Source: an uncultured candidatus Brocadiaceae bacterium (GTDB lineage: Bacteria; Planctomycetota; Brocadiia; SM23-32). Taken from it: DNA of 45,476 bases. The notes below the pieces were generated by a model, which was given only the letters and a program-made list of their open reading frames with translations, was not told the DNA's origin and did not search any database. Position 1 is the first letter of the stretch, and every line of letters starts with the position of its first letter. The DNA lies in NCBI GenBank assembly GCA_964605915.1, contig CAZSET010000003.1:2886-48361 (forward strand), written 5' to 3'. Shown here one piece after another: positions 19,963-35,168 of this stretch. The position numbers were made by a program, and so were the translations under genes.

Positions 19963-21207
19963 TCACCCTTCGCCTTCCGCCAGCTCCGCCCTGTTCTCGT
20001 ATACCTTGCGGAGGGCGGCCACTATGTCGTCCATATCCGCGGGCGCGGCGAGCAACATGCTGTGCCGCATCCAGACCGCCTCCCGGCAGATGCGCTCGGC
20101 GTTCGGGCAGTCCACGTCCAGGTAATCGCGCTTCACGCCATAGTACGGGCAGGAGAGCGGGCAGTACTCCGGCCCGTCGCCGCTGTGCTTGAACAGCCAG
20201 TGCCTGTAGAGGGGCTCTTTGTAGCCGCCGTAGCAGGGGACGCCCTCCGCGGTCAGCGCGGCCATGAACCGCCCTCGGCTGACGCCGTCGAACTCCTCGG
20301 ACACGAACCTCACCTGGTATCCGTGATAGGCGCGCCGCGTGACCCTTTCGTCCTCGCGGATCGTGTGAATGCCCGGTATCTGCGAGAGCTCGGCGGTGAG
20401 GCGGTGGGCGTTCTCCTGGCGCACGCGCGTGTGCTCGTCCATCCGCCCGAGCTGGGCCAGCAACAGCGCGGCCTGGAACTCCGTCATGCGGTAGTTGCTG
20501 CCCGTGCGATAATGGTGATACCAGGGGTTATCCAGCCCGCGCCCGCAGTTGGTGAACGAGCGGATCAGCGCGGCCAGTTCCTCATCGTCGGTCAGGACGA
20601 TGCCGCCCTCGCCGGCCGTCATGTTCTTCGATAGCTGGAAGCTGAACCCGCCGGCGTCGCCGAGCGCGCCGGTGCCCTTTCCCTTCCACTGGCTGCCCCA
20701 ACTGTGGCAGGCGTCCTCCACCACGACCAGGTCGTGCTCCTCGGCCATCTCGCCGATGCGGTCCATGTCGCACGGCAGCCCGACCCAGTGGACGGGCACG
20801 ATGGCCCTGGTTCTGTCCGTGACGAGCGCGGCCGCCGCGTCCACGTCCAGGTTGAAGGTGTGCAGCTCGACGTCGCAGAAGACGGGCACGGCGTTGGCGC
20901 GCAGCACGGCATCGGCCGTCGCCTGGAAGGTATAGGCCGGGATGATGACCTCGTCGCCCGCCTTCACATCGCAGCAAACGAGCGCCGCCTCGAGCGCGGC
21001 GGTGCCGTTGCACGTCGTTATGGCGAACCGTGCGCCCTGGAAGGTGGCGAACGCCTGCTCGAACTCGCGCACTTTCTCCGCGTAGTACCACCGCCCGCTG
21101 CGCAGCACGCCGAGCAGCGCCTCCTCTTCGGCCTCGCCGTAGACGGGCCAGTCGGGCCACGGCTCCGTCCTGACCGGCTCCCCGCCGTTCACCGCCAGCT
21201 GTGCCAT
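19963..21207 (-). CDS. DegT/DnrJ/EryC1/StrS-family PLP aminotransferase
   Basis: TTCNGTAALEAAL, VPVHWVGLPCDM, SFQLSKNMTAGEGG (PLP lysine). Start at ATG 21207. Confidence 0.9.
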   Translation of the reverse strand: MAQLAVNGGEPVRTEPWPDWPVYGEAEEEALLGVLRSGRWYYAEKVREFEQAFATFQGARFAITTCNGTAALEAALVCCDVKAGDEVIIPAYTFQATADAVLRANAVPVFCDVELHTFNLDVDAAAALVTDRTRAIVPVHWVGLPCDMDRIGEMAEEHDLVVVEDACHSWGSQWKGKGTGALGDAGGFSFQLSKNMTAGEGGIVLTDDEELAALIRSFTNCGRGLDNPWYHHYRTGSNYRMTEFQAALLLAQLGRMDEHTRVRQENAHRLTAELSQIPGIHTIREDERVTRRAYHGYQVRFVSEEFDGVSRGRFMAALTAEGVPCYGGYKEPLYRHWLFKHSGDGPEYCPLSCPYYGVKRDYLDVDCPNAERICREAVWMRHSMLLAAPADMDDIVAALRKVYENRAELAEGEG

Positions 21208-21269
21208 GGTCTGCCTATCTCCCTCCGCTGGGAACCCCCGTAGCAACGCTCATCGATTGCGGGCGCCCG

Positions 21270-22301
21270 TCATCTGCTGCGGAAATCACGAAGCCTGGTG
21301 TTGTCTACCATCCGGCCAATCGTCTTTGGCGTGAAGACCTTCCCTTTGGCGGCGACCAGAAGCTTCTTCATGTCCTCCCGCCGTACCGCGAAACCACGTC
21401 CTCCAATGCATGCGACAACTTGGAACCGCGGACGCTCCTCAACGGTGCCAGCCAGGCTCACCTCGGCCAAGTGCTGAATCCGGGTCACCTTGTCGCGCGC
21501 AGTGCCATCATCCTGTGTGATCTTGGCCTCAATGACCACTTGTGGGTTCAGTTCGCTCGGCACAATGAAGTCAGGCGCCTGGTCAAAGCCCTCGATCCGT
21601 TCAGCGCGCTTCGTCTTGCGAAAGCTTATGCCGGCCTTGCTCAGTATGTCCTCGACGGTAGATTCCAGGCCTCCCCCGATGAGATCACTGACTGAGTCTC
21701 TATGACCTGCGAACGGCCGCCCCAGGAATCTCTCGTACAAAAGGACCGCATATGGAGCACCCATGTCAGCCAGACGGCGAATGCCATCGGCCCCGGTTCT
21801 TGTGTCCGCCTTGCCAAGGCGGTGTATCTCGCCGGCCTCCACGTCAGGAGCCCCTTGGCTGAGCAACTGGCACGCCACCTTAACCAACGCGCCAAGTCTG
21901 GACGCCGTAACGCCCGTGACAACCAGCGGCCCTTCGGGCGCCATCCGGATCCGTCTATCGAGGGAGCGAGCTGCTCCTTGCGTCACCTCGATGCCGGTCC
22001 TCTGAGTAGCGACATAGGCCCACTCCGGCGGCGTGAAACCCAACATGGAGCGAAGGACTATGAATGAGACGGGGTGACTTCTAACAGCGCGCAGGACAAG
22101 CTCCGGCCGGATGTCGGCAAAGCCGCCTGTAGCGCGCTTCAACGCCTCGTAGCCCTCCTCGAAGGTGGCGTACTCAATGAATCCCGGTCCTTTGGGAAGT
22201 ACGAGGAACTCCGATTCGAGGCAGGAGAAGACTGACGAAACATAAACGTCAAGGTTCTCCTGCATTTCCCCGAAGGGGACTTCAAAAGGGAACTTGAGCA
22301 T
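21270..22301 (-). CDS. Putative type II restriction endonuclease (PD-(D/E)xK)
   Basis: APDFIVPSELNPQVVIEAKITQDDGTARDK (21522-21572) is a classical D...E-x-K core. The start overlaps the stop of the upstream methyltransferase by 20 nt. Lower GC than the flanks. Confidence 0.6.
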   Translation of the reverse strand: MLKFPFEVPFGEMQENLDVYVSSVFSCLESEFLVLPKGPGFIEYATFEEGYEALKRATGGFADIRPELVLRAVRSHPVSFIVLRSMLGFTPPEWAYVATQRTGIEVTQGAARSLDRRIRMAPEGPLVVTGVTASRLGALVKVACQLLSQGAPDVEAGEIHRLGKADTRTGADGIRRLADMGAPYAVLLYERFLGRPFAGHRDSVSDLIGGGLESTVEDILSKAGISFRKTKRAERIEGFDQAPDFIVPSELNPQVVIEAKITQDDGTARDKVTRIQHLAEVSLAGTVEERPRFQVVACIGGRGFAVRREDMKKLLVAAKGKVFTPKTIGRMVDNTRLRDFRSR

Positions 22302-24489
22302 CTTGCGCTCCGTATGGGGTCTCTACCTCCTCCACTCGCGCCCCTTGGCGTGCCGGCACGGTTTCCAGGAGACCAGCAAGGTGTCGCTCGACGACTTCAA
22401 CACCTCCGAAGGAGGCCGTCCAGAGCCCCACCTTGTCCAAACGCTCCTTTGTAGGCCATGTGGGATCCCATTGCGGCCTGAGCGACCACACGCAGAGCCG
22501 CACCAGATGCCCGTGAATGATGCAGCGGATGTCCCCGGCAGTAGGTCTCACCCCTCCGTCTTCAAGAGCCGCGATATCCGCCCGCACAAGGCCGGCAACG
22601 CCTTCCGCTTGCTCGGGCAGCCACCGGCGGGGGACAGAGCCGGTGGAACGGCACACGAATACGGTATCTATGATGGAAGAGCTAGTGCCGCTAATGTGAA
22701 TGGAGGCCCCCATCTCAGCCGGACAGGGAAACGATGCCGAGCACGTGAGCCCACAGTCCAGGATCGCGATCGCCACCGGATAGTATGCGGCCAGTTCATT
22801 GTGATGATAGGTAAAGACAAGCGGAGTCCCAGGCTTGAGCGCCCGGGCCATGTGACAGAACGCCCTCGATAGGCCTTCGGCGAAGTGCTCAATTCCGCGG
22901 TCCATGCTCACGTTGGCCGTCAGCTCTCCTGGGGTTCGAGTGGAAACGCCCTCAAAGCCCGGCGTGCCCTTGGGCACAAGGCGGCGCAACCACACGTAGC
23001 AGAAGTCCATCAGCTCGGCATACTGCACGTTGCCGAAGTACGGTGGATCGGTGAAGACCCCATCAAGGCTGTTCGGAGGTAACGGTTTCTGCGTCGCGTC
23101 TGCGCAAGAGATCTCAACGCAACGGACTTCAGAATCCTGACCGCGCCGAGATTCGCCTATCCACTCACCTGGCAGGACAACTTTGGTTCTACGTCCATCT
23201 TCGTGTCGCACCTCATACGGTTTCGGGCAATAGGACTTCGCCTTCGCGAACTTATCGATCATGTTGCACCAGCCCCCACTGCCAATACACCCCCCCCGCA
23301 CCGGGTCTTCAATCCCCAGGAGGTTGGATTCGCACTGCACGAGGCCCACAGGGAAACCGTGGACCGAAAAGATGTCGAGTGACTTGAGGGCCATGGTGTC
23401 GTAACGGCAAAGCATGTTCTGATACCGCAGCAGATCCGATAGATTCGTTGCCAGTGCATCTCGGATCCTGGCGTTGCTGAACGCCGCAATGAACCGGCAA
23501 CTCAACTCGAGCCCCAGCAACTGCCGTGCATTGAACATCTCCCTATAATGCCTGTAACCCCATCGATGGAGTCTATCGCTCTCGTCGCCAGGAGGAATCT
23601 GCTCTTCCGGGACGAACGCCGCGTCCATCCCGTTGTAGCGATGCTCGGCTGTGGCAAAGCGCCCCAGATCCTGCTCATCAGGCGCCTTGAAGAAGCGTCC
23701 CTTATGGTCCGGCTTGCAGTTGGGGCAGTAGTACTCGATAGCAAACATGCGGTGACGCGGAGGCCCTCCGTGTGGATCAGGATACGAGCCGATGAAGCCG
23801 CAGTGCGGGCACTCGAATCTGTTTCGCCTGGCCGAAGCCGCGGCGGCAAACGGCTCATCACACGCGGCACAGCGCGACACTGCGTCCCGGCTTTCTGCCT
23901 CGGTGAGGGCACCGCACTTCCCGCAAACAAAGACGTACTTGGGGTGCCGACGATTCTTTGCAACGACTTTGCCCGGCAGCAATGCGACATCCGCGCCGCA
24001 GTTACGACACGACTGAACTTTGACCCATAGGAAGTACTTCGCCAGGGCATTCTCAGCCCCGCACAGAACGCACCGCGTATGGTACAGCTCCCCGATTTCC
24101 CCCAGCAGGTAACGCCTAAGCTGCCCCGTGGCCTCCGCGTAATCGTCCAGATCCAGGGACCGCATCTCTTCTCTAACTATCCAGTACGCCATCGGGTTGA
24201 CATCGTACCCGACGACGTCACACCCAAGACGGTTCGCCTCCAGCAGAGGAGTCCCGCCTCCCATAAAGGGGTCAGCGACACGCACCCCCGCCAGCTTGTT
24301 GGTCTTGTAGTAAACCTCTCGGAGGTCCCCGCCCGCAAACTCAGATAGCAACAGCCCCCGGAAAAGGGAGCCCGGCCGACGCGCGAACCACTTGTGAACA
24401 CATATGATGGGGCGGTAGTTCTGCTGTATCTGCTTCTCGCGAAGTGCGAGATTGGAGATAAACGGTACGTCGAAATCGTGTTCTATCAT
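22282..24489 (-). CDS. COG1743/DUF1156-type DNA methyltransferase with Zn-ribbon insertions
   Basis: N-terminal DUF1156-like HKWFARRPGSLFRGLL, SAM motif DPFMGGGTPLLEA and motif IV DPPY (23038-23049). Several CxxC pairs lie between them (CVLCG...CRNCG, CGKCG...CAAC, CPHCG, CPNC). Confidence 0.85.
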   Translation of the reverse strand: MIEHDFDVPFISNLALREKQIQQNYRPIICVHKWFARRPGSLFRGLLLSEFAGGDLREVYYKTNKLAGVRVADPFMGGGTPLLEANRLGCDVVGYDVNPMAYWIVREEMRSLDLDDYAEATGQLRRYLLGEIGELYHTRCVLCGAENALAKYFLWVKVQSCRNCGADVALLPGKVVAKNRRHPKYVFVCGKCGALTEAESRDAVSRCAACDEPFAAAASARRNRFECPHCGFIGSYPDPHGGPPRHRMFAIEYYCPNCKPDHKGRFFKAPDEQDLGRFATAEHRYNGMDAAFVPEEQIPPGDESDRLHRWGYRHYREMFNARQLLGLELSCRFIAAFSNARIRDALATNLSDLLRYQNMLCRYDTMALKSLDIFSVHGFPVGLVQCESNLLGIEDPVRGGCIGSGGWCNMIDKFAKAKSYCPKPYEVRHEDGRRTKVVLPGEWIGESRRGQDSEVRCVEISCADATQKPLPPNSLDGVFTDPPYFGNVQYAELMDFCYVWLRRLVPKGTPGFEGVSTRTPGELTANVSMDRGIEHFAEGLSRAFCHMARALKPGTPLVFTYHHNELAAYYPVAIAILDCGLTCSASFPCPAEMGASIHISGTSSSIIDTVFVCRSTGSVPRRWLPEQAEGVAGLVRADIAALEDGGVRPTAGDIRCIIHGHLVRLCVWSLRPQWDPTWPTKERLDKVGLWTASFGGVEVVERHLAGLLETVPARQGARVEEVETPYGAQDAQVPF

Positions 24490-24513
24490 GTCCCCTACCC
24501 CTGCGTTTCCGCC

Positions 24514-24542
24514 ACAGTATCAGCCATGGCAGAACATGTCAA
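24514..24542 (-). promoter_or_regulatory. Candidate sigma70-type promoter for the M-R operon
   Basis: On the minus strand: TTGACA (24542-24537), 17-nt spacer, TACTGT (24519-24514), about 25 nt upstream of ATG 24489. Confidence 0.45.
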
Positions 24543-24610
24543 CAAAAGCATAGCGAATGGCGCCCGCCGGCGACTGCCTGGCTGTCCCGCCAATGGCATC
24601 CCATCGCCCG

Positions 24611-25765
24611 TCAGTAGTAGTTGAGGCCGTAGTTGACCAGCGGCAGGGGGAAGAGGCAGTCCAGCGTCTGCCTCAGCTCGGAGCCCTCCGCCAGACCCAG
24701 CTCCAGCCTGTCGCGGTGGCGCGGGTGGCAGAAGACCATGTCCGTGAACGATCGCATCTCCGCCAACTCCAGCTCCTCATCGCCATACGCGATCCTGACA
24801 TCGCCGTCCACGCTAAAGCGGAGACGGCCGAAGGCCTCGCCCCCCAGCCTCTCCCTGAACAGGGAGGCGCACGCCTGCCAAAACCGCCCCGGATCTATGA
24901 TGCCGACCGTGCCCCGGAAACCGGTCGGCTCCGATGGCCAGCCGAAGCCGGCCGCCATCTGGGAGACTTCAACGTCGCAGTCCGCGTAACGGAGCGTCAT
25001 GTCGTCCAATCCGCGCTCCGCCAGCAGCGCAGCCATCGCCTGCATGATTGCCCGACGCGAGCCTCCCATTTCCAGCACCGTGATGGCGTTCTCGGCCTTG
25101 TGTTCCCACGGCGCGCCGCCTATCTGACAGGCGACGAACGCAACCGGCCGGTCGCCGCCCTTCCGCCAGACGAGCCGCGACTCGCCCGGCGCGGTGCAGA
25201 GGCGATCCCGCTGGAGCAAGCGAAGGAATTCGTCCGGACCGCGCACGAAGCGAGCCGGTTCGGCCACGCTCAGCTCCAGGACGGCCCGCATATCCTCGCG
25301 CCTCGCCGGGCGCAGTTCGTACTGAGGGCTTCCCGCCACGGGCATCCGGTCTCGCCGGATGGTGCAGACGTTGAAGGCGCCCGTCTCGACATACCCCGAC
25401 CGTTTGTAGAGCCCGCGTCGGCCGGAGATGAGGACGAGATCGGCCCCGTCGGCCAGCGCCTTCTCCCTGCAGTCAACAAGGAGCCGCGTCGCCAGGCCGC
25501 GCCCCCGGTAGTCGGTATCCGTGCAGACCCCGCCGAAGCAACAGGCCAGGTGCCGGACGCCGAGCAAAGCGATCTCCCGGTAGGTCATGGCCACGGCCGA
25601 GACGACCTTGGCGTCATCGGCGAACACGCGCAGGTTCTCGCGCACTTCGTCGTCGGCGGGGGATGGCAGGTGCGCGTCTCCTCCCGTCCGGAACACACGG
25701 TGGGCGAGCTCTGCGGCGCTGCGGATCTCCACTCCTCTTGCGGCTTTGGGTCCCTGGATCGTCAT
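24611..25765 (-). CDS. GNAT N-acetyltransferase with Eis-like C-terminal (SCP2-like) region, paralogue 1
   Basis: GNAT core VCTDTDYRGRGLATRLL. Long C-terminal domain ending in LFPLPLVNYGLNYY. Confidence 0.85.
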   Translation of the reverse strand: MTIQGPKAARGVEIRSAAELAHRVFRTGGDAHLPSPADDEVRENLRVFADDAKVVSAVAMTYREIALLGVRHLACCFGGVCTDTDYRGRGLATRLLVDCREKALADGADLVLISGRRGLYKRSGYVETGAFNVCTIRRDRMPVAGSPQYELRPARREDMRAVLELSVAEPARFVRGPDEFLRLLQRDRLCTAPGESRLVWRKGGDRPVAFVACQIGGAPWEHKAENAITVLEMGGSRRAIMQAMAALLAERGLDDMTLRYADCDVEVSQMAAGFGWPSEPTGFRGTVGIIDPGRFWQACASLFRERLGGEAFGRLRFSVDGDVRIAYGDEELELAEMRSFTDMVFCHPRHRDRLELGLAEGSELRQTLDCLFPLPLVNYGLNYY

Positions 25766-25804
25766 TGTTGTTCCTGTGCGCGGAAGGTTCTGTCAGCGTG
25801 CTGC

Positions 25805-26962
25805 CTAGATGTAGTTGAGGCCGTAGTCGACCAGCGGCAGGGGGAACAGCTCATCGAGGATTCCGGCGAGCTCGGACCCGTCCCTCAGGCCGAGGTCAAG
25901 CTCCCCCCTCCGATGGCGAGGCAGAAAGACCAGGTTTGTGAGCGCGCTCATGTCCTCTAGCACGAGCTGCTCCCGTCCGTGGGCAATCCTGACCGGCGGC
26001 CCGGCGTCGAACTGGAGCGCGTCGAACTCCCGGCCCAACTTCTCCCGGAACACGGGGGTGCACGCATCCCAGAACCGGCCCGCGTCTATGATGCCCACGG
26101 TTCCGGGGAAGCCGCGCGGCTCCGTGGGCCAGCCACACGAGCGGGCCATCTCGCCAAACTCCACGTCGCTGGCCAGGTAGTGGACCGTCGCGCTCGCCAC
26201 GTCGTGTTCCTCCAGCAGTGCCCCCAGCACGCGCGCGACGGCCCAGCGCGCACCCGCCATCTCCGCGACCGTCACCGTGTCCGTATCGCGGTCCTGCGGG
26301 CGGAAGCCGCCCAGACGATAGGCCACGTAGCCGACCGGCTCGTCGCTTCCGCTCTGGCATACCATCCTTGTTTCGCCCCTGCGGTTCACGACCTGGCCGC
26401 AGCTCAGCAGGGCCACGAAGTCGTCCGGCGGGCGCACGAAACGCACCGGCTCGGCCGCGTGAAGCCGGACGAGCGCGGGCACGTCCTCCATCCGCCAGTG
26501 GCGCAGCACGCAACGGCCAGGGGGCGGCAACTGGTCGCGCCTGATGGTGCACGTGTGGTAATCGCCCACGTTCACGTAGTCCTGCCGGCGGTAGAGGCCT
26601 CGGCTGCCCGAGATCAGAAACACGTCCACGCCGTCGCGACGGGCCTTCTGCCTGGCGTCCAGCAACAGCCGTGTGGCCAGTCCCTGCCCGCGGTAGTCCG
26701 GATCGGTGCAGACCGAACCGATGCTGCCGGCGAGGTGCCGCGTGCCCAGAAGGACGATCTCGCGCTCGAGCATTCCGACGAGCGACACTACCTTGCCGTC
26801 CTCGACGAAGACCCGCAGCCCGTCCAGGTTCTTCTCGCTGAGAAGGAGCGGGTAGTGGCGCGCCATGGACGAGCCCCACCCGACGCGGAACACCTCATCG
26901 GCCAGCTCGATGGCAGAGCCGAGCTCCTCCTTGCGCAGAGCCCTTGGCCCTTCGATAGTCAC
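25805..26962 (-). CDS. GNAT N-acetyltransferase with Eis-like C-terminal region, paralogue 2
   Basis: VCTDPDYRGQGLATRLL. Same length and collinear with paralogue 1 (both start MTI[QE]GP and end LFPLPLV[ND]YGLNY). Confidence 0.85.
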   Translation of the reverse strand: MTIEGPRALRKEELGSAIELADEVFRVGWGSSMARHYPLLLSEKNLDGLRVFVEDGKVVSLVGMLEREIVLLGTRHLAGSIGSVCTDPDYRGQGLATRLLLDARQKARRDGVDVFLISGSRGLYRRQDYVNVGDYHTCTIRRDQLPPPGRCVLRHWRMEDVPALVRLHAAEPVRFVRPPDDFVALLSCGQVVNRRGETRMVCQSGSDEPVGYVAYRLGGFRPQDRDTDTVTVAEMAGARWAVARVLGALLEEHDVASATVHYLASDVEFGEMARSCGWPTEPRGFPGTVGIIDAGRFWDACTPVFREKLGREFDALQFDAGPPVRIAHGREQLVLEDMSALTNLVFLPRHRRGELDLGLRDGSELAGILDELFPLPLVDYGLNYI

Positions 26963-27171
26963 ACACTTCCTCCGCTGGGATGGCAGCCGATGGTGGGAGC
27001 GACGCCTGCACGGAACGAAACTCTAAACATACCGGCGCCCCGGCGGCAGTGCAAATGCGCAGGGTCGCGGGGCGGCTCGTAGGGCCACACGGCGGGAGTT
27101 ATGCTATTCTCCGTAAAGCTGTGCCGCCGAAGGTGGGACTATTGGAGTGGAAGGCCTTCGAAGAGATAGGA

Positions 27172-28437
27172 ATGGGCGGGGATGACTTGCGTGCACTGGT
27201 GACTCAAGCTCAAGCGGGCGACCTGGATGCCTTCGGCGAGATTGTCCGGCGGTTCCAGGACATGGCGTACGGCTACGCGTACTCCCTTCTGGGCGACTTC
27301 CACCTCGCCGAGGATGCGGCGCAGGAGGCGTTCATCGAGGCCTACCGCTGCCTGCCGAAGCTGCGCGAGCCGGCTGCGTTTCCCGGCTGGTTCAGGAGGA
27401 TCGTGTTCAAGCGATGCGACCGACTGACAAGACGCAAGCGGGTGAGCACTGCTCCACTCGGATCGGTCGGCAGCGTCGCCTCCGAGAGCCCCGGGCCGCC
27501 AGAGAAGGCAGAGAGGCGGGAGATGAGGGACAAGGTGCTCGACGCCATCGGCTCCCTCCCCGACGAAGAGCGCGCAGTCACCACGCTCTACTACATCGAC
27601 GGCTATTCCCAGAAGGACGTTGCCGAATTCCTGGAGGTGCCGGTCACGACGGTCAACAACCGCCTCCACGCCTCGCGGCAGCGGCTCAAAGAAAGGATGA
27701 TTGCTATGGTTGCTGACACGTTGAGGTCCAACGCGCCCGACCCCGAGGAGGCACAAGACAAGGTACGCTTCCTTCTGCAATTCGGCGAGCGCATAGGCCG
27801 AGGGGAGCCAATCCTCGCGGCCCTTAACGCACTGCGCGAGCAAACAGAGAGCGAACGTCTACAAGACATCATCCGCCACATGGAGGCGGTCATAACGGCC
27901 GCCGGGTCCGTTTCCGAAGCGCTCGCAGAGGGTGAGGACTTGTTCCCGCCAATGGTACTCTCCCTCATCAACGACGGTGAGCGCTTCGGCATCCTGGACC
28001 AGACGATGCCCCTGGCCGGCGAGTGGTTGCGGGATGGGCGGTTCTCAGCCGATCCTCATCTGTTCGCCGGCGGTCTCACCGCCAATGTCCGCAAGTACGT
28101 GCAGCACGCTACTGATGCAGGCGCAACGGAGATTGTGATTGACAGCACTCAGGTTGGGCCTCATCCGGACGATCGGGAAGAGACTGTGGTGTGGGTTGAG
28201 CACGTGATGCCCGATGGCACGCGGAAGCAAACAGACTACATCCATCCTGGCTATTTCAACGAGATATCGCTTCAACTGAGGAACTTGACCGTCCTGGACG
28301 CGCGTCAGGAAGGGGACGCCATGAGAGGGACGCTTTTCTCTGGCCTGATGCCTGGCAGCGGACGAGGAACAACTTTGCCCGTGTCATACCGTCCTCTCCG
28401 CAACGGGGAAGTGATTCGAATCCGGGTTGCCCCATAG
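27172..28437 (+). CDS. ECF (group 4) sigma factor with about 235-aa C-terminal extension resembling GspF/PilC and GspE/PilB N-terminal modules
   Basis: Region 2 (FGEIVRRFQDMAYGYAYSLLGD...AQEAFIEAY) and region 4 (LPDEERAVTTLYYIDGYSQKDVAEFLEVPVTTVNNRLHASRQRLK). The rest is T2SSF-like (27760-28029) and T2SSE-N-like (28078-28431). The start at ATG 27172 is uncertain. Confidence 0.85.
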   Translation: MGGDDLRALVTQAQAGDLDAFGEIVRRFQDMAYGYAYSLLGDFHLAEDAAQEAFIEAYRCLPKLREPAAFPGWFRRIVFKRCDRLTRRKRVSTAPLGSVGSVASESPGPPEKAERREMRDKVLDAIGSLPDEERAVTTLYYIDGYSQKDVAEFLEVPVTTVNNRLHASRQRLKERMIAMVADTLRSNAPDPEEAQDKVRFLLQFGERIGRGEPILAALNALREQTESERLQDIIRHMEAVITAAGSVSEALAEGEDLFPPMVLSLINDGERFGILDQTMPLAGEWLRDGRFSADPHLFAGGLTANVRKYVQHATDAGATEIVIDSTQVGPHPDDREETVVWVEHVMPDGTRKQTDYIHPGYFNEISLQLRNLTVLDARQEGDAMRGTLFSGLMPGSGRGTTLPVSYRPLRNGEVIRIRVAP

Positions 28438-28754
28438 TGGCAGCGGTCTGGGCCCCAGGGCTCCTCTTTTAACAGCGCCCCAGTCCCACGCCCGACGCTC
28501 TTGCCGCTGAAGTGCCGATAGCTTGAGCCGCTTGGGCTTGCCTTGGGGCTCGACGACGGCGCAGTCTGCTTCGGCCGGAGAGACGGGCGCGTCCACGCGC
28601 TGCAGCTTTGCGGGCCGTTGCGCGCCCGTAGGGTGCCTGGTAACATGGCCCGATCGGCCCGTCCCCGTCCCGGAGGGGGCCGAGTCCCGCTGAAACGACC
28701 ATTTCTCCCATTCGCTGGCCTGCGCAGTGAGCGGGCCGTGGAACCCAAGGCACA

Positions 28755-29540
28755 ATGCACATCGTCGTCTGCATCAAACAGGTGCCGGACACCACGGACG
28801 TGCGCATCGATCCCGAGCGCGGCACGTTGATCCGCGAGGGCGTGGCCAGCATCCTCAACCCACACGACGCGTACGCCATCGAGGGCGCGGTGGCCCTGCA
28901 CGAGCGCCTGGGCGGGTCGGTCACCGCGCTCACCATGGGCCCTCCGCAGGCGGAGGCCGTGTTGCGCGAGGCCGTCGCGCGCGGCTGCGACCGCTGCGTG
29001 CTGCTCACGGACCGCGCGTTCGCGGGCGCGGACACCTGGGCCACGTCCTACACGCTTGCCTGCGCCGTGCGCAAGCTCGGCGACGTGCGCCTCGTCCTGT
29101 GCGGCAAGCAGGCCATCGACGGCGACACAGCACAGGTCGGGCCCGGGCTGGCCGTGCACCTGGGCTGGCCGCAGGCCACTTACGTGCGCGGCATCGTCGA
29201 AGCCGACGTGGACGCCGTCGTCGTCGAGCGGCTCACCGACTGGGGTAACGAGACGCTGCGCGTGGAGCTCCCCGCCATGCTGACCGTGCTGAAGGACCTA
29301 AACTTCCCGCGCCTGCCGTCGCTGGTCAGCCAGATGCGGGGCCGGCGCTGCGACGTCGAACGGTGGGGCGTCGATGCCGTCGAGGGAGACGCCGCCGAGT
29401 TCGGCCTGAACGGCTCGCCAACGCGCGTCGTGCGCGTCTTCACGCCGCCGCCGCGCGGCGAGTGCGTGCTGTGGAAAGGGGACCCGGAGACGGCCGCTCC
29501 CGAACTCGTCCACGCGCTCAGGGACAAGAGGCTCGTCTGA
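28755..29540 (+). CDS. etfB: Electron transfer flavoprotein beta subunit
   Basis: MHIVVCIKQVPDT..., NPHDAYAIE, LLTDRAFAGADTWATS. The stop TGA overlaps the etfA ATG (ATGA at 29538-29542). Confidence 0.93.
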   Translation: MHIVVCIKQVPDTTDVRIDPERGTLIREGVASILNPHDAYAIEGAVALHERLGGSVTALTMGPPQAEAVLREAVARGCDRCVLLTDRAFAGADTWATSYTLACAVRKLGDVRLVLCGKQAIDGDTAQVGPGLAVHLGWPQATYVRGIVEADVDAVVVERLTDWGNETLRVELPAMLTVLKDLNFPRLPSLVSQMRGRRCDVERWGVDAVEGDAAEFGLNGSPTRVVRVFTPPPRGECVLWKGDPETAAPELVHALRDKRLV

Positions 29541-30757
29541 TGGCCCTCAAGATAGACCACGAAGCGTGCACGCTCTGCCTGCGCTGCATCGAGGAATGCC
29601 CCTACGGCGCCCTGTCGGAGGTGGAGGGCAGGATCGTCGTGAGCGAGGCGTGCACGCTCTGCGGCGCGTGCGTGGACGTCTGCCCCGTCGAGGCCATCCG
29701 GCTGGAACGAGAGCCAACACCTGAGGAAACAGCGCCAGCGGGCGAGTGCCGGGGCGTCTGGGTCCACGCGGAGCGCCACGCTGGCCGGCTGCACCCGGTG
29801 GTGTTCGAGCTGATCGGGAAAGGGGCCGAGCTGGCGGACGCCCTCGGCTGCCCGCTGGAGGTCGTCGCGGCGGGAGCCGGACTTGAGGGCCTGAGCGGGC
29901 AGCTTGCCGGCCTACCCGTGGACGCCCTCTACGTGGCGGAGCACCCAGGACTGGCGGAGTACACCGACGGCGCGCACGCGCTGGCCATCGCGCACTTGAT
30001 CCGGAAGCGCCGCCCCGAAATCGTGCTGGCCGGCGCCACGGCTCAGGGACGCTCGCTGATGCCGCGCGTGGCGGTGCTGTGCAAGACCGGGTTGACGGCC
30101 GACTGCACGGGCCTGGAGATGGACCCCGAGACCGGCAACCTGCTCCAGACGCGACCGGCCTTCGGCGGGAACGTGATGGCGACCATCGTCACCGCCCGGC
30201 ACAGGCCGCAGATGGCGACCGTGCGCCCCAAAGTGATGACGGTACCGCAGAGAGAGGGCGCGGCGGAGCCGGAAGTGCATCGCTGGAAGCTCCCGGATGG
30301 TCTGCTGCCCGGGGGCGTGACGGTGATCGGGCGCGAGGAGGAATCCCGGCAGTCGGTGAACATTGCCGATGCGGACGCCCTGGTTGCGGGCGGCAGGGGC
30401 CTCGGCGGGCCGGAGGGGTTCGAGCTGCTGCAGCGCCTGGCCGATGTGCTCGGCGCAGAGGTGGCCGCCAGCCGGGCCGCCGTAGACGCGGGCTGGGCGC
30501 CCTATGAACGCCAGGTTGGCCAGACGGGCAGGACGGTTCATCCCGATCTCTACGTGGCCGTCGGCATCTCGGGCGCCGTGCAGCACCGGGCCGGCATGCA
30601 GTCGTCGGGCACCATCGTGGCCGTCAACAGCGACGCGGCGGCGCCCATATTCGAAATCGCCGACTATGGCATCGTGGGCGACTACCGGGAGGTGCTGCCG
30701 CACGTCATCCAACAGCTCGCCGAACTCAAAGCGGCGGAGGGGGCCGAGCATGAATGA
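29540..30757 (+). CDS. etfA: Electron transfer flavoprotein alpha subunit with N-terminal 2x[4Fe-4S] ferredoxin domain
   Basis: CTLCLRCIEECP and CTLCGACVDVCP, followed by the EtfA core (PELYVAVGISGAVQH-type: PDLYVAVGISGAVQHRAGM). Confidence 0.93.
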   Translation: MALKIDHEACTLCLRCIEECPYGALSEVEGRIVVSEACTLCGACVDVCPVEAIRLEREPTPEETAPAGECRGVWVHAERHAGRLHPVVFELIGKGAELADALGCPLEVVAAGAGLEGLSGQLAGLPVDALYVAEHPGLAEYTDGAHALAIAHLIRKRRPEIVLAGATAQGRSLMPRVAVLCKTGLTADCTGLEMDPETGNLLQTRPAFGGNVMATIVTARHRPQMATVRPKVMTVPQREGAAEPEVHRWKLPDGLLPGGVTVIGREEESRQSVNIADADALVAGGRGLGGPEGFELLQRLADVLGAEVAASRAAVDAGWAPYERQVGQTGRTVHPDLYVAVGISGAVQHRAGMQSSGTIVAVNSDAAAPIFEIADYGIVGDYREVLPHVIQQLAELKAAEGAEHE

Positions 30758-32360
30758 GCTTATGCCCCGGCCGCCGAAGACGAGCGCGACTGACTACCGC
30801 AAGGTGACCGGCTGGGAGCGCGTCCGGGAGGGCTACGCTGAGTACCTGCATGACGAGTCGCGCCTGGCCGCCGAGCGGGTCGAGGTGATTCATTTCCCGA
30901 CCAATGTGGACGAGGTGGCAGCGGCCCTGAGGAGCGCACGGCAGACGGGGCACCGCGTCGCCGTCTCCGGGGCCCGCACGGGCATCACCGGCGCCGCCGT
31001 CCCCCTGGATGCCGAGGAGATCCTGTCGCTCGAACGCATCAAGCCCAGGCCCAAGGTGCGGCGAGACGGCGGGGGCAACTGGACCGTGCGCGTCGGCGCC
31101 GGCACGACCGTGGCCGAACTGAACGACGCGCTCGACCACGGACTGTGCGACTATCCCGACGGCAAACCGGACGCTCCGCTCTTCTACCCCGTAGACACCA
31201 CGGAGACCTCGGCGCACCTGGGCGGAACAGTCGCGACCAACGCCTCGGGCGCGCGGACCCTCTACTACGGAGCGACGCGCCGCTGGGTTGAGGCGCTCAC
31301 CATTGTCACCGCAGACGCGCGCGTTCTTGAGCTACGACGCGGAGACGTCCGCGCAGAGGACGGCGTCCTTGCCTATCGGCGCGAAGACGGCGGGCGGGCC
31401 GAACTGCGCGTCCCCGATCTGCCCATGCCGAAGACCAAGCACACGGCCGGTTACTATCTGAAGCCCGGCATGGACGCGATCGAACTCTTCATCGGCAGCG
31501 AGGGAACGCTCGGCATCGTGGTCGAGGCGGAGCTGCGACTGGCCCCGAAACCGGCAAACCGGCTCTTCCTCACCCAGTTCGTCGAGGGACCGGACGACGC
31601 CGTAGCGCTCGTGCGGGCGTGCAAGGGAATCCCAGCGCTGACGCCGCTCGCCATCGAGTACATCGGCCCCCGCGCAATGGCGCTGCTGCGCACGATGGGC
31701 CGGCAGACGGCAGCCTACGTGGAAGTGTCCCGCCTGCCCGAAGATGCTGCCGCCATGCTTTACGTCGAAGCGCCGTTCGACGACGAGGCCCACCTGGACG
31801 CGATCTACGACGCGCTTCGGGAGGTCATCGGCGCGGCCGGGCTCGACCCCGCGCATAGCTGGGCAGGCTTCACCGAGAACGACATGGAGGAGATGAAGCG
31901 GCTCCGCCACGCCGTGCCGGAGACGGTCAACGCCATCATCGGGCAGCGCAAGGCAGACGTGCCGGAACTGCACAAGGTGGGCACGGACATGGCCGTGCCG
32001 GACGAGTCACTCGGCGCGATGATAGGAGTTTACGAGGGGCGGCTGGCGGCGTCCGGGCTGGACTTCGTGATCTTCGGCCACATCGGGGACGGGCACCTGC
32101 ACGTCAACATCCTGCCCGGCTCGGCGGCGGAGTTGCGCGCGGCGGAGGACCTCTACGCCCAGTTCGCGACCGAGGCGGTGCGGCTGGGGGGCAGCGTGGC
32201 GGCCGAGCACGGCATCGGGCGGATCAAGAAGCCGTTCCTGCCGATCCAGTTCAGCGCGGGGGACCTGGCCGCCATGCGGTCGATCAAGCAAGCGCTGGAC
32301 CCGGACTGGACGCTCAACCCCGGCGTCCTGTTCGACGCGCCGGAGGCGGCGCAAGACTAA
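30750..32360 (+). CDS. FAD-linked oxidase (GlcD/D-lactate dehydrogenase family)
   Basis: FAD_binding_4 region (VAVSGARTGITGAAVP) and C-terminal FAD-oxidase domain (HIGDGHLHVNIL, AEHGIG). ATG 30750 overlaps the etfA end by 8 nt. Confidence 0.9.
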   Translation: MNELMPRPPKTSATDYRKVTGWERVREGYAEYLHDESRLAAERVEVIHFPTNVDEVAAALRSARQTGHRVAVSGARTGITGAAVPLDAEEILSLERIKPRPKVRRDGGGNWTVRVGAGTTVAELNDALDHGLCDYPDGKPDAPLFYPVDTTETSAHLGGTVATNASGARTLYYGATRRWVEALTIVTADARVLELRRGDVRAEDGVLAYRREDGGRAELRVPDLPMPKTKHTAGYYLKPGMDAIELFIGSEGTLGIVVEAELRLAPKPANRLFLTQFVEGPDDAVALVRACKGIPALTPLAIEYIGPRAMALLRTMGRQTAAYVEVSRLPEDAAAMLYVEAPFDDEAHLDAIYDALREVIGAAGLDPAHSWAGFTENDMEEMKRLRHAVPETVNAIIGQRKADVPELHKVGTDMAVPDESLGAMIGVYEGRLAASGLDFVIFGHIGDGHLHVNILPGSAAELRAAEDLYAQFATEAVRLGGSVAAEHGIGRIKKPFLPIQFSAGDLAAMRSIKQALDPDWTLNPGVLFDAPEAAQD

Positions 32361-32377
32361 TCATATGTGAAGTGCTC

Positions 32378-32406
32378 TTGACTTCGCTCGCCTTTTTCCG
32401 TATAAG
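32378..32406 (+). promoter_or_regulatory. Near-consensus sigma70-type promoter for the HTH-methyltransferase
   Basis: TTGACT (32378-32383), 17-nt spacer, TATAAG (32401-32406), in a locally AT-rich gap. A 5-7-5 inverted repeat gaagt...acttc (32369-32385) overlaps the -35. Confidence 0.55.
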
Positions 32407-32442
32407 ACCGTTTAACACCCAGTATTCCCGCGGCTTCTCGCG

Positions 32443-34011
32443 GTGCGAGATATGGACATACTCACTGTTCAAGGGGCGGCGGAGCTTCTGGCCGTCGACG
32501 CCAAGACGGTTTACCGGCTGATCGAGCGTGACGGGCTGCCTGCCTTCAAAGTCGGTCGGCAGTGGCGCATGCGAGTGAGGGACCTGGAAGCGTGGATCGA
32601 CCGGCAGATGCAGGTGAACGAAGCGTCACCCACCTATCGCGCGGGGCAAACGGCACTGTTTCCCGAGGCCGAAGGCGGTGAGACTGGGCCGCATGAGGCC
32701 GGACGGGGGTTCAGCGACTCCGCCTTCTCTGAGAATGGCGACTTGCCCGTCCATAGGTGGGTCCCCTGGATAGCGGGGTTCAGCGCCACTTTCGTTCGTG
32801 AGGTGCTGGACCGTTACGCATCGGGGGACGCGCAGCCAGAAAGCCAGACTGTGCTCGACCCCTTCGCCGGAGTGGGGACAACGCTGGTTGCCGCCTCGCT
32901 GAGGGGGCACCCGGTCTGCGGCTTCGAGATCAACCCGTACGCTGCAGAAGCTGCCGAAGTCAAACTGAGCGCCCCGGCGATCCCAGCGGACGAACTCAGC
33001 CGCAAGATCGGCGAATTCGAGACGACCTTTCAGGAAGCGATCCGCACGGGGGCCTCTCCCAGAGGGTCAGCACCGCGCGGCTTCCGCACCAGGCGAAGGT
33101 TCCTTTCACCGCTGGTGGAACGAAAGGTCCTGCTCGCGAGAGACTTCATTGAGGATCTGAAGGACCCGCTGATTCGGAAGTGCTTCCGCATCGCGCTGGC
33201 CTCGGAACTGGTGGGGTTCTCCAATTACTCCTACGAGCCCAGCCTCGGCACGCGGGTCGCTGCGGGGAAACCCGAGGTGCCCGACGCGCCTGTTGCTCGC
33301 GCGATGGGCAGCAAGCTGAGGCTGATGGTCGAGGACGTGAAGGCGCTGCAACGGGACCTCCACGCCAAGGCATCCTTGCCCGCAGCAGAGCTCCACCAGG
33401 GAGACTTCTTTGAGCTAGAGCACGTCCTGCCGGACAACAGCATCCAGTTGGTCATCACTTCACCGCCGTACCTCAACAACTACCACTACATCCGCAACAG
33501 CCGGCCGCAGATGTACTGGTTGCGCCTGGCACACTCCCCAAATGACCTTAAGGCAGTGGAACGTGGAAGTTTCGGCAAGTTCTGGCAGACGGTGCGCGCG
33601 GGGGAAGCGCTAAGTCTGCGCTTCGACATGCCCGAGCTGGAGGAAAGCATTGGGTTCCTGCGCTCGGTGAACTCCCACAAGGGAGCGTATGGAGGCCCCG
33701 GCTGGGCAAACTACGCGGCCACCTATTTCAGCGATTGCCACCGGTTCGCCGGAATCCTCAGGCGCGTGCTCCGTCCAGGAGGGAAGGAGGTAGTCGTGCT
33801 GGGCAACAGCATTCTTCAGGGGGTCGAGTTTAGAACGGACGTGCTGTTTGGCCGCATATGCGAGCTGCAAAGCTTGAAGCTCGAAGAGGTGGTCCCATTG
33901 CGCGAGAAGCGCACGGGAACCAGCATCATCCGCTCGTCCGTGCGCTCAAACTCCGCGCGAGGGAAGACGACGCTGTACGAGTCGGCCGTCGTGGTGGGCA
34001 AGGCCCGCTGA
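32443..34011 (+). CDS. DNA methyltransferase (SPPY motif IV) with N-terminal excisionase/MerR-type HTH
   Basis: HTH_17-like LTVQGAAELLAVDAKTVYRLIERDGLPAFKVGRQWRM. SAM motif VLDPFAGVGTTLVAA and motif IV ITSPPY (33460-33471). Start is GTG 32443 or ATG 32452. Confidence 0.85.
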   Translation: MRDMDILTVQGAAELLAVDAKTVYRLIERDGLPAFKVGRQWRMRVRDLEAWIDRQMQVNEASPTYRAGQTALFPEAEGGETGPHEAGRGFSDSAFSENGDLPVHRWVPWIAGFSATFVREVLDRYASGDAQPESQTVLDPFAGVGTTLVAASLRGHPVCGFEINPYAAEAAEVKLSAPAIPADELSRKIGEFETTFQEAIRTGASPRGSAPRGFRTRRRFLSPLVERKVLLARDFIEDLKDPLIRKCFRIALASELVGFSNYSYEPSLGTRVAAGKPEVPDAPVARAMGSKLRLMVEDVKALQRDLHAKASLPAAELHQGDFFELEHVLPDNSIQLVITSPPYLNNYHYIRNSRPQMYWLRLAHSPNDLKAVERGSFGKFWQTVRAGEALSLRFDMPELEESIGFLRSVNSHKGAYGGPGWANYAATYFSDCHRFAGILRRVLRPGGKEVVVLGNSILQGVEFRTDVLFGRICELQSLKLEEVVPLREKRTGTSIIRSSVRSNSARGKTTLYESAVVVGKAR

Positions 34012-34262
34012 CGTCTCAGTGCGGGGTCCCCCAGACAGCCAGATGCTGCCGGACCTCCCCGATTATGCCCTCAGCGGATTCCTCCGGCTCCAACTCCAGC
34101 GCCCAACTGCGGCCGGGATGGACGATGTAGCAAAGCACAGTCAACAGCGAATCAACCGCCGTCCGCGCGGCCTTCCACCGCCAAGCCGCTGGAGTCTGGT
34201 GCGCGAGGTAAAGGGGGCCCGAGCGGTCCGTATAGGCAGGGCCGGCTGCCCCTTGGCGTCGC

Positions 34263-34290
34263 TTGACAGAGCGGAGAGTTTTACTACAAT
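34263..34290 (+). promoter_or_regulatory. Near-consensus sigma70-type promoter for the FRG / orphan gene pair
   Basis: TTGACA (34263-34268), 16-nt spacer, TACAAT (34285-34290), about 65 nt upstream of ATG 34356. Confidence 0.55.
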
Positions 34291-34355
34291 TGTGGCGTAA
34301 TGGGATCATCGACCGTGGGCGCACGTGTGCATTGGCGAAGGGGTCGGCGCCGCGT

Positions 34356-35156
34356 ATGAAGCTCCTCAGTTCTTACAAGCAGAAGCTTTACATAGCACGC
34401 GGGCCGAGATGCAAGGTCCTGCCCAACGCAATCGGATCACTCGGAGATTACCTTGACGTTACCAGCAGCCTCCATACCAGCAGCAGGGCTTTCTGGTATC
34501 GTGGCCACGCAGACATTGCGTGGAAGCTCACTCCTGCCGCACTTCGTCCACGGACCGTCGACAAAAGGAAGCAGGCGCTCCGTTTGCTGGACGAATTCAA
34601 GCGCGTCGCCCCGACCAAGTTGCCCCCCAATGTACCGCGCCCAGACGACGAACTCGAATGGCTTGGGCTTGCCCAGCACTACGGATTGCCAACACGTTTG
34701 TTGGACTGGACTCAGAATCCGTTGATAGCGCTGTACTTCGCTTGCGAAGGTCCCCGTGGATATGGCGCAGTCTTCCTTCTGAATCCTGCCGAACTCAATC
34801 GGCAATCCCTTGCGGGAGAAGCGAGGGTCCTTGACGCTCGTCGCGACGCTGACCGCCTGCGGACGTACCTTGCGTTGGGCGCCGAGCGGCGGAAGGACGG
34901 GCGGCCAACTGTGGCAGTTTACCCCGTGTACAACTCGGACCGGATTCTCCTGCAAAAGGGGGCATTCACGCTGCACGGTGACAAGAACTTCTCTCTAGAC
35001 AACAGACAGGCAAGCTCCCTTGTGTGCGTGCCGGTACTACCGGCCCATAAGAGCCTATTCCTCGCAGAGCTGGGACGGGTCGGAATCGACGAGATGTCAA
35101 TCTTCCCGGAACCGGAGCATGTGTGCAGACAGCTACGCCGTAGTATTGAGATCTGA
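34356..35156 (+). CDS. FRG-domain protein
   Basis: FWYRGH (34491-34508) followed by LGLAQHYGLPTRLLDWTQNPLIALYFA, the two signature blocks of the FRG domain (PF08867). Start at ATG 34356 (the TTG at 34263 coincides with the promoter). Confidence 0.8.
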   Translation: MKLLSSYKQKLYIARGPRCKVLPNAIGSLGDYLDVTSSLHTSSRAFWYRGHADIAWKLTPAALRPRTVDKRKQALRLLDEFKRVAPTKLPPNVPRPDDELEWLGLAQHYGLPTRLLDWTQNPLIALYFACEGPRGYGAVFLLNPAELNRQSLAGEARVLDARRDADRLRTYLALGAERRKDGRPTVAVYPVYNSDRILLQKGAFTLHGDKNFSLDNRQASSLVCVPVLPAHKSLFLAELGRVGIDEMSIFPEPEHVCRQLRRSIEI

Positions 35157-35168
35157 GGTACTACCGCC

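Follow-up and report, generated by a model that had tools for sequence, protein, structure and literature searches.

We analysed a 45,476-nucleotide stretch of DNA (hereafter the window) from an uncultured candidatus Brocadiaceae bacterium (contig CAZSET010000003.1 of assembly GCA_964605915.1, positions 2,886 to 48,361). The subject of this report is one gene on its forward strand, which encodes an extracytoplasmic function (ECF) sigma factor with a long C-terminal extension. An open reading frame (ORF) runs without a stop over positions 26980-28437 of the window, and its probable start is the ATG at 27172, giving a protein of 421 amino acids that begins with MGGDDL. This start is backed by the two closest relatives at the nucleotide level, at the loci L002 and L001, which have in-frame stops shortly 5′ and equivalent GTG or TTG starts. 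Judged by its domain content, the gene product is a soluble protein composed of an ECF sigma core and a two-domain extension. The protein contains no hydrophobic segment that would qualify as a membrane helix (the maximum Kyte-Doolittle mean over 19 residues is 0.92), and a motif check found neither Walker A nor Walker B, in agreement with an earlier note on this DNA that had seen no Walker motifs. The features of the gene, all on the + strand, are as follows.

27134-27163, + strand: candidate ECF-type promoter with a -35-like element TGGGACTA (27134-27141), a 16-nucleotide spacer containing the palindrome GAAGGCCTTC, and a -10-like element TCGAAG (27158-27163)
27172-28437, + strand: coding sequence of the 421-residue ECF sigma factor with its C-terminal extension, from the ORF and its translation; stop codon at 28435-28437
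27241-27441, + strand: sigma region 2 (residues 24-90; Pfam Sigma70_r2, E 6.6e-13)
27529-27693, + strand: sigma region 4 (residues 120-174; Pfam Sigma70_r4_2 on residues 120-172, E 3.4e-13, and Sigma70_r4)
27694-27759, + strand: conserved helix after region 4 and junction (residues 175-196, RMIAMVADTLRSNAPDPEEAQDKV), from the alignment of cores across all extension types
27760-28035, + strand: GspF/PilC-type cytoplasmic helical domain in a single copy (residues 197-288), from Pfam T2SSF, PDB sequence matches and Foldseek
28024-28026, + strand: codon TGG of Trp285 at the boundary between the two extension domains; TAG in L001 and TGA in L003
28078-28434, + strand: alpha/beta domain resembling the N2 subdomain of PilB/GspE (residues 303-421), from the AlphaFold2 model, Foldseek and hhalign
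28447-28473, + strand: terminator-like hairpin with a T-rich tail, 10 nucleotides past the stop codon, from a consensus scan as a pattern match only

Domain content of the protein

The sigma core occupies residues 1 to ~190. The normal core of regions 2 and 4 that the earlier note had described is borne out by matches to Sigma70_r2, Sigma70_r4_2 and the curated NCBIfam model TIGR02937 (sigma70-ECF), the last scoring 85.3 bits against a cut-off of 42.9. The linker between the two regions is ~30 residues long in the Pfam scan, and the protein has no Pfam match to sigma region 1.1 or region 3. For this protein, every NCBIfam equivalog model stays under its cut-off. The solved structures closest to the core, by a phmmer search of PDB sequences, are SigW, SigE and SigH. 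Its domain features place the protein in the ECF (group 4) branch of the sigma-70 family. It would bind core RNA polymerase and direct transcription from a cognate promoter; a conserved ECF-like motif is present upstream. No second copy of the sigma core was found within the window.

The first domain of the extension matches Pfam T2SSF (PF00482), as the earlier note had read it at residues ~197-286. The match covers residues 200-288 with 32.3 bits (E 1.1e-7) in the full protein and rises to 36 bits (E 8e-9) in the isolated extension, both above the gathering cut-off of 25.2 bits. It spans positions 1-90 of the 125 positions of the profile, which take in the cytoplasmic helical bundle but leave out the membrane helix. 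A phmmer search of PDB sequences found PilC of M. xanthus (3jc8, 8.8e-10), the N-domain of PilC of T. thermophilus (2whn) and EpsF of V. cholerae (2vma). With a profile of the family, the PilC match improves to 3.4e-28, and both cytoplasmic repeats of PilC fit equally well. Foldseek matches this domain to 2vmb, 5nbg and 2whn; for the last two, the root-mean-square deviation across 94 columns is 1.5. Identity to genuine PilC/GspF proteins is only ~30%.

The C-terminal domain (residues ~290-421) has no Pfam match, and PF00437 (T2SSE) is silent on both the full protein and the isolated extension. NCBIfam gave no T2SSE or PilB match for the domain either, and a 21-sequence profile of it found no match among PDB sequences. 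The resemblance to the N-terminal subdomain of GspE/PilB, which the earlier note had seen by eye at residues ~303-420, is therefore invisible to ordinary sequence profiles: of the profiles it had proposed for hmmscan, Sigma70_r2/r4 and T2SSF matched and T2SSE did not. The resemblance was recovered in the structural comparison. An AlphaFold2 model of residues 188-421, built from 17 homologues, has a predicted local distance difference test (pLDDT) score of 91.2 and a predicted template modelling (pTM) score of 0.87 over both domains, and shows the C-terminal domain with the element order alpha-beta-beta-beta-alpha followed by several more strands. When this model was compared to the PDB with Foldseek, the top 35 matches were exclusively GspF/EpsF/OutF/PilC/TcpE cytoplasmic domains and PilB/PilF/GspE/EpsE ATPases. 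The ATPases are matched over ~113 columns with a probability of 1.00 and E-values of 6e-4 to 9e-3 (for example 5zfr_C at 5.9e-4, 5oiu and 4pht), and PilT and PilU rank lower and weaker. The E-values of the list are modest (about 1e-3 to 1e-4), though the list is exclusive to two families. An hhalign comparison of the domain profile with a GspE/PilB-type N2 segment found in locus L026 produced a collinear alignment of 100 columns (E 1.6e-3, with a probability of only 16%), pairing VRKYVQHATDAGATEIVIDST with VNTLLDEAAQRRSSDLHIEPT, MPDG with RIDG, and LPVSYRPLRNGEVIRIRV with VRVAVIPTILGERITLRI. According to the model, the C-terminal domain has the N2-subdomain fold of PilB/PilF/GspE; its identity rests on structure, and the support from sequence profiles is weak. 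The description in the earlier note is borne out for all three parts of the protein. The T2SSF-like and N2-like domains are predicted to pack as one compact unit.

Recurrence, integrity and separability of the extension

With the extension as query, HMMER was run exhaustively against 1.84 billion representatives and recovered 1547 proteins (E<=0.001), most of them ordinary PilC/GspF proteins of ~400 amino acids that match the T2SSF part. At the top of the list stand ~20 proteins that span the whole module; most are 405-435 amino acids long and carry the module at about positions 186-430. The database survey that the earlier note had proposed thus found the architecture of sigma core, T2SSF domain and C-terminal domain in ~20 clusters (at 50% identity) from independent assemblies, with the identity of the extensions falling to 26-36%. 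Their full-length alignment is conserved throughout, junctions included. Most relatives come from short metagenomic contigs. A word-indexed homologue search with the single extension as query returned one relative only, and the word-indexed database holds further members with precomputed Pfam matches to Sigma70_r2/r4 and T2SSF, all of them metagenomic and named only 'RNA polymerase sigma factor'.

A relative with 90% identity over a continuous ORF lies at L002 in a metagenome-assembled genome (MAG) labelled 'uncultured Candidatus Brocadiaceae bacterium', in the same context of two GNAT genes. Comparison with L002 gives ratios of nonsynonymous to synonymous divergence (dN/dS) of 0.27 (core), 0.37 (T2SSF-like domain) and 0.26 (C-terminal domain). 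By this measure, all three parts of the protein are under purifying selection. Synonymous divergence from L002 is uneven, at 0.28 in the core, 0.08 in the T2SSF-like domain and 0.19 in the N2-like domain. The GC content at third codon positions (GC3) is 0.73 for the gene and 0.85-0.93 for most neighbouring genes, and it falls along the gene: the core has 0.82, the T2SSF-like domain 0.76 and the N2-like domain 0.63. The gradient and the uneven synonymous divergence hint at a mosaic or recombinant history of the gene.

The low and declining GC3, together with a stop codon at the inner domain junction in two relatives, could be taken to mean that an assembly chimera or a frameshift has joined a sigma gene to a separate ORF. 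We regard such an artefact as practically out of the question. An independent MAG carries the continuous ORF at 90% identity, and the architecture recurs in about 20 diverged relatives that come from independent metagenomes. The junction between sigma core and T2SSF-like domain is conserved, and dN/dS values of 0.26-0.37 indicate purifying selection. Where relatives have a stop, it sits between the T2SSF-like and N2-like domains rather than after the sigma core, and the reading frame is preserved. Sequence identity of ~30% to PilC/GspF and the loss of sequence similarity in the N2-like domain suggest that the extension domains are old and specialised rather than a recent accidental capture of pil genes.

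The module is also found outside of sigma factors. The pair of T2SSF-like and N2-like domains occurs without a sigma domain in protein P0008 (529 amino acids), with two extra T2SSF domains, and in protein P0015 (758 amino acids), with one extra T2SSF domain and a 3-keto-disaccharide hydrolase domain. Both are soluble proteins. Their modules are closest to one sigma-linked subgroup (40% and 37% identity to P0007 and P0012) and are nested within it, forming no outgroup. Several other matches were set aside. Those of P0028 and P0038, giant proteins of Ig repeats, are weak and were treated as repeat-driven noise, and P0045 (286 amino acids) joins the N-part of an ornithine/aspartate carbamoyltransferase to the last 85 residues of an N2-like domain and is probably a chimera of assembly or gene calling. 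P0004, P0012 and P0158 (~240 amino acids) start inside the helix after region 4; they are probably ORFs cut at their N-termini and therefore provide no evidence for stand-alone modules.

In two relatives, the two extension domains are separated by a stop at the codon equivalent to that of Trp285. In L001 (positions 2070-2072) this codon is TAG, followed by TTG. In L003 (positions 8844-8849) it is TGA, directly followed by ATG, and the downstream ORF of 126 amino acids is called as a protein of its own. In both, the frame and the conservation run on past the stop. These stops rest on two assemblies, one of them at about 2x coverage. Either the gene has split into two translationally coupled parts, or the stop codon is read through. 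A stop at the same Trp codon in both loci suggests that the two domains can associate non-covalently; as a separate chain the N2-like domain presumably binds the T2SSF-like domain, which agrees with the compact two-domain model.

A sigma factor clade with interchangeable extensions

Patterns taken from the sigma core were run against 185,579 species genomes and yielded 267 relatives, among which the pilus-type extension is present only in L002, L003 and L011. At the other loci (L004-L080), cores that are 58-78% identical to the window core are followed by wholly different sequences. The extensions of 79 loci fall into at least 21 types. Pfam identifies ankyrin repeats (19 loci) and the PheS catalytic core (16 loci), and further SecA motor domains, the Rho RNA-binding domain, FliG_N with FliG_M, FliM, SAICAR synthetase (PurC), inositol-1-phosphate synthase (Ino1), a bifunctional-nuclease (BFN) domain, GNAT, HEAT and TPR; several types received no domain assignment. 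In some members whole PurC and Ino1 proteins are joined after the sigma core. The source MAGs are labelled as Planctomycetota, Poribacteria, Latescibacterota, Armatimonadota, Verrucomicrobiota, Chloroflexota, Hydrogenedentota, Actinomycetes and others, and several genomes carry paralogues with more than one extension type.

The conserved part of these proteins extends through the helix after region 4 (RLKERMxxMVxDTLxxNAPDxxF), and the sequences diverge from the same point in nearly all types. In a ranking by identity, which is no formal tree test, cores with other extensions reach up to 78% identity to the window core, against 37-60% for many cores that carry its own extension type. By this comparison, the histories of core and extension disagree in the clade. 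On the sequence evidence, the protein of the window is one variant within an ECF clade whose C-terminal modules are interchangeable, and this alters the picture given in the earlier note.

A planctomycetal ECF clade with conserved sigma2 and sigma4 and unrelated C-terminal extensions has been described by Pinto & da Fonseca 2020 (PMC7671368), who propose that a sigma2-sigma4 segment is duplicated and captures adjoining sequence by 'fortuitous insertion'. The general rule for ECF groups is one extension type per group, and C-terminal extensions correlate with the absence of anti-sigma factors (PMC7826278). Our literature searches found no paper tying T2SSF to a sigma factor, in agreement with the suggestion of the earlier note that an extension of secretion-ATPase and platform fragments had not been described before.

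Upstream element and genomic neighbourhood

Many members of the clade share a DNA element upstream of the gene. A block of the form TGGGAC(T)T, 15-16 nucleotides and TCnAA is present 30-80 nucleotides 5′ of many of the sigma genes, across extension types, and is seen in L002, L003, L007, L009, L015, L018, L019, L025, L034, L051, L065, L070 and others. The spacer often holds the palindrome GAAGGCCTTC or compensated variants that preserve the palindrome. Of 80 upstream regions, 16 contain the strict composite pattern, where shuffled sequences predict 0.13; among 380 random regions, 2 contain it. Of the 16 regions, 11 belong to closely related Poribacteria loci of the ankyrin type. In the window, the candidate promoter ends 8 nucleotides before the ATG, implying a very short leader.

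Promoters of the sigma-E type follow the pattern GGAACTT-N16-TCnaA, which the upstream block resembles. We regard it as a candidate autoregulatory promoter common to the clade. A shared promoter would fit the near-identical DNA-binding regions of the cores. Classical ECF patterns (GAAC-N-CGT and GGAAC-N-GTT) are not enriched upstream of the clade genes. A scan of the window for a regulon with the upstream motif gave 9 matches where about 10 are expected, the motif being too loose for this purpose, and Rfam detected no RNA family in or around the gene.

The sigma gene is flanked by two GNAT genes upstream and by Etf and FAD-oxidase genes downstream, past the terminator-like hairpin. None of the ten flanking genes (19963-35156) is a pilus or secretion gene. 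No anti-sigma-like gene and no conserved neighbour was found in the contexts examined, and the neighbours in L003, L011, L081 and L082 are unrelated.

The GNAT pair (24611-26962, - strand) consists of tandem paralogues of 384 and 385 amino acids, 51% identical and divergent from the sigma gene; the second also matches Acetyltransf_17, and the arrangement is kept in L002. A relationship between this pair and the large extension type of the L008 group was suspected; blastp found no similarity, the label 'GNAT-like' was dropped for that type, and the pair is without similarity to the extensions of other clade members. Downstream, positions 28755-32360 hold a gene for EtfB, a gene for EtfA with an N-terminal ferredoxin domain of two [4Fe-4S] clusters, and a gene for a FAD-linked oxidase, an arrangement that we take to resemble the clusters of electron-bifurcating lactate/glycolate dehydrogenase and Etf.

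Two regions of lower GC content lie further out. A 3.3-kb stretch (21270-24489, GC 0.59-0.63) between a DegT aminotransferase gene and the GNAT genes contains an ORF of 343 amino acids with no Pfam match and one of 735 amino acids with weak matches to DNA methylases and methyltransferases. It looks like an insertion, because the DegT and GNAT genes adjoin each other in the syntenic L002. The second region (32443-35156, with GC of about 0.59-0.62 across 33000-37000) encodes a protein with HTH_17 and N6_N4 DNA-methylase domains and a protein with an FRG domain, and may be another mobile or defence-related island.

Possible roles of the extension and comparison with known systems

We tentatively favour, at somewhat less than even chances, a reading in which the module is a built-in input domain that replaces a separate anti-sigma factor and gates the sigma core through contacts with the motor of a type IV pilus or type II secretion system. 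In favour of this reading count the domain identities, the compactness of the module, the conserved fusion with purifying selection on both extension domains, the lack of an anti-sigma-like gene nearby, the behaviour of the module as a unit, the age of its domains and the upstream block, which is compatible with autoregulation. The module would control whether the core reaches RNA polymerase, standing in for an anti-sigma factor. Gating would take place through protein-protein contacts with PilB/PilT/GspE hexamers, PilC or their partners, and transcription from the gene's own ECF-type promoter and of the regulon would then follow the state of assembly or activity of the machine. What the module retains are parts of a platform protein and an ATPase, which cooperate in the motors of these machines. 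With no ATPase core and no membrane anchor, it cannot power or form a pilus or secretion machine itself. The regulatory role, the binding partners and the direction of control, which could be either sequestration or activation, are inferred.

Several observations weigh against this input-domain reading. At none of the loci examined do pilus or secretion genes adjoin the sigma gene. If the two extension domains pack as tightly as predicted, the module may be closed on itself and not open to partners. The single-sequence AlphaFold model of the full protein is poor (pLDDT 48), leaving no confident full-length model. The presence of many extensions on one core makes a specific co-evolved docking surface, of the ECF41/42 type, unlikely. 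Furthermore, since many unrelated modules are tolerated, a role of the extension in sigma regulation is not guaranteed. With so many extensions on one core, a generic mechanism is the more likely one, for instance that partners of the fused domain tether or sequester the protein.

Known C-terminal extensions of ECF sigma factors work in cis (PMC7826278; review PMC8999054), and the extension described here could do the same, docking on sigma2, sigma4 or the linker in the manner of ECF41, ECF42 and ECF44. It would then sense a small ligand or a modification, and the pilus-like folds would merely be a reused scaffold with no link to a machine. The compactness of the module in the AlphaFold2 model and the lack of a genomic link to pilus genes in the loci examined are consistent with this. 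On the other hand, near-identical cores bear unrelated extensions, which argues against a specific docking surface for each of them; the module exists in proteins without a sigma core; and the N2-like domain is a separate polypeptide in two relatives. We consider a purely cis-acting extension unlikely.

The occurrence of the same module in non-sigma proteins can also be read as a sign of capture. A duplicated sigma2-sigma4 cassette may have landed in or before a gene for a soluble protein with several T2SSF domains, of the P0008/P0015 type, so that the module would retain a function of its own and take no part in regulating sigma. This is the 'fortuitous insertion' model, published for an ECF clade of planctomycetes in which conserved cores carry unrelated extensions (PMC7671368). 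The whole PurC and Ino1 proteins fused after the core, the discordant similarities of core and extension and the fixed junction all fit it. An accidental or neutral fusion would, however, be expected to decay or split, whereas the fusion seen here is old and maintained in ~20 diverged clusters of several subgroups, with both domains under purifying selection. An origin by capture would be compatible with a later regulatory role. As a complete account of the module, captured cargo seems to us an improbable explanation.

A broader possibility, which we judge distinctly unlikely, concerns the clade as a whole. Its members may form a multi-phylum surveillance family in which a near-invariant ECF output with shared promoter specificity is fused, in each member, to a copied piece of a different core machine. 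The machines would be the pilus or secretion motor (PilC and PilB N2), the flagellar switch (FliG, FliM), the SecA motor, the RNA-binding domain of Rho and the catalytic core of PheRS. Each paralogue would report, by mimicry of a subunit, on the assembly or integrity of its machine or on an attack by phages or competitors, and all would trigger one common transcriptional response.

In a narrower form of this idea, the module would be an integrated decoy or guard that mimics the PilB-PilC interface targeted by phage or competitor proteins; binding of the effector would free the sigma factor and switch on a protective programme, and other members of the clade would guard other machines likewise. 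Phage proteins that bind PilB are known. The extensions of the clade are largely pieces of core machines (the PheS core, the SecA motor, Rho RNA-binding, FliG, FliM, and the PilC and PilB parts), and they are combined with one conserved output domain, a shared upstream motif and several paralogues per genome. Against a decoy stand the extensions that are ordinary enzymes or repeats (PurC, Ino1, GNAT, ankyrin, HEAT, TPR), the lack of defence genes noticed beside the sigma genes examined, where no dedicated PADLOC search was made, and the lack of support in literature searches. A decoy of this kind is very improbable in our estimation.

The ECF extension types studied so far are few (SnoaL-like, TPR and Cys-rich), and each is tied to its own core group. 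New here is an extension built of two interface parts of the motor of type IV pili and type II secretion systems, conserved as a unit, yet splittable at the domain boundary or found in non-sigma proteins. Should the module bind motor components, it would provide a direct link at the protein level from a surface machine to transcription, and a small soluble system for the fit between platform and ATPase domains. If it has no regulatory role, it would be a clear example of a 'cassette insertion' mode of sigma factor evolution. A surveillance family, if there is one, would amount to a bacterial counterpart of 'integrated decoy' immune receptors, and the intramolecular pair of PilC-like and PilB-N2-like domains would model the platform-ATPase interface. 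More generally, the clade raises the question of how unrelated C-terminal domains could control the same sigma core.

Compared with the cytoplasmic domains of GspF/EpsF/OutF/PilC/TcpE (PDB 2vma, 3c1q, 5nbg, 2whn, 4hhx), the first extension domain has the same helical-bundle fold and significant sequence similarity. GspF/PilC platform proteins consist of two T2SSF repeats, each followed by transmembrane helices, and are polytopic proteins of the inner membrane, whereas the window protein has one repeat and no transmembrane helices and is a soluble protein fused to a sigma factor. With a single repeat and no membrane helices, it falls outside the GspF/PilC platform family. The second domain shares the alpha/beta fold and the order of elements with the N2 subdomain of PilB/PilF/GspE/EpsE (PDB 5zfr, 5tsg, 5oiu, 4pht, 1p9w), with collinear motifs (GATEIVID corresponding to SSDLHIEP, MPDG to RIDG) and a final beta-hairpin. 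In contrast to the GspE/PilB/PilT ATPases, which possess a RecA-like domain, Walker A and B motifs, an Asp box and a His box, the window protein has none of these and terminates directly after the N2-like domain; PF00437 is unmatched and sequence similarity is lost. Having no ATPase core, it likewise falls outside the GspE/PilB ATPase family.

The flagellar checkpoint of FlgM and sigma-28 couples the availability of a sigma factor to the state of a large envelope machine. This is an analogy of working principle only: FlgM is a separate anti-sigma factor exported by the machine, and the two systems share neither homology nor a fused domain derived from the machine.

The clade resembles, by its described pattern, the planctomycetal clade of PMC7671368, in which highly conserved cores likewise carry extensions of several origins, the histories of core and extension disagree, and the context is not conserved. 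It differs in that it spans many phyla, and in that the extension of T2SSF-like and N2-like domains is anciently conserved and not a recent fortuitous capture. The ECF groups with characterised extensions, namely ECF41 and ECF56 (SnoaL-like), ECF42 (TPR), and ECF44 and ECF238 (Cys-rich), likewise have a sigma2-sigma4 core with a long C-terminal extension and no adjacent anti-sigma factor, and are expected to use the extension as an input domain, as we propose here (PMC7826278). Neither Pfam nor Foldseek found in the window extension the motifs of SnoaL (ECF41/56/294/295), TPR (ECF42) or Cys-rich (ECF238) extensions. On the basis of its different extension domains, the protein lies outside these groups. 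Its extension fold is unrelated to those of ECF41/42/44/56/238, and where each of these core groups carries one type of extension, here a single core group carries many.

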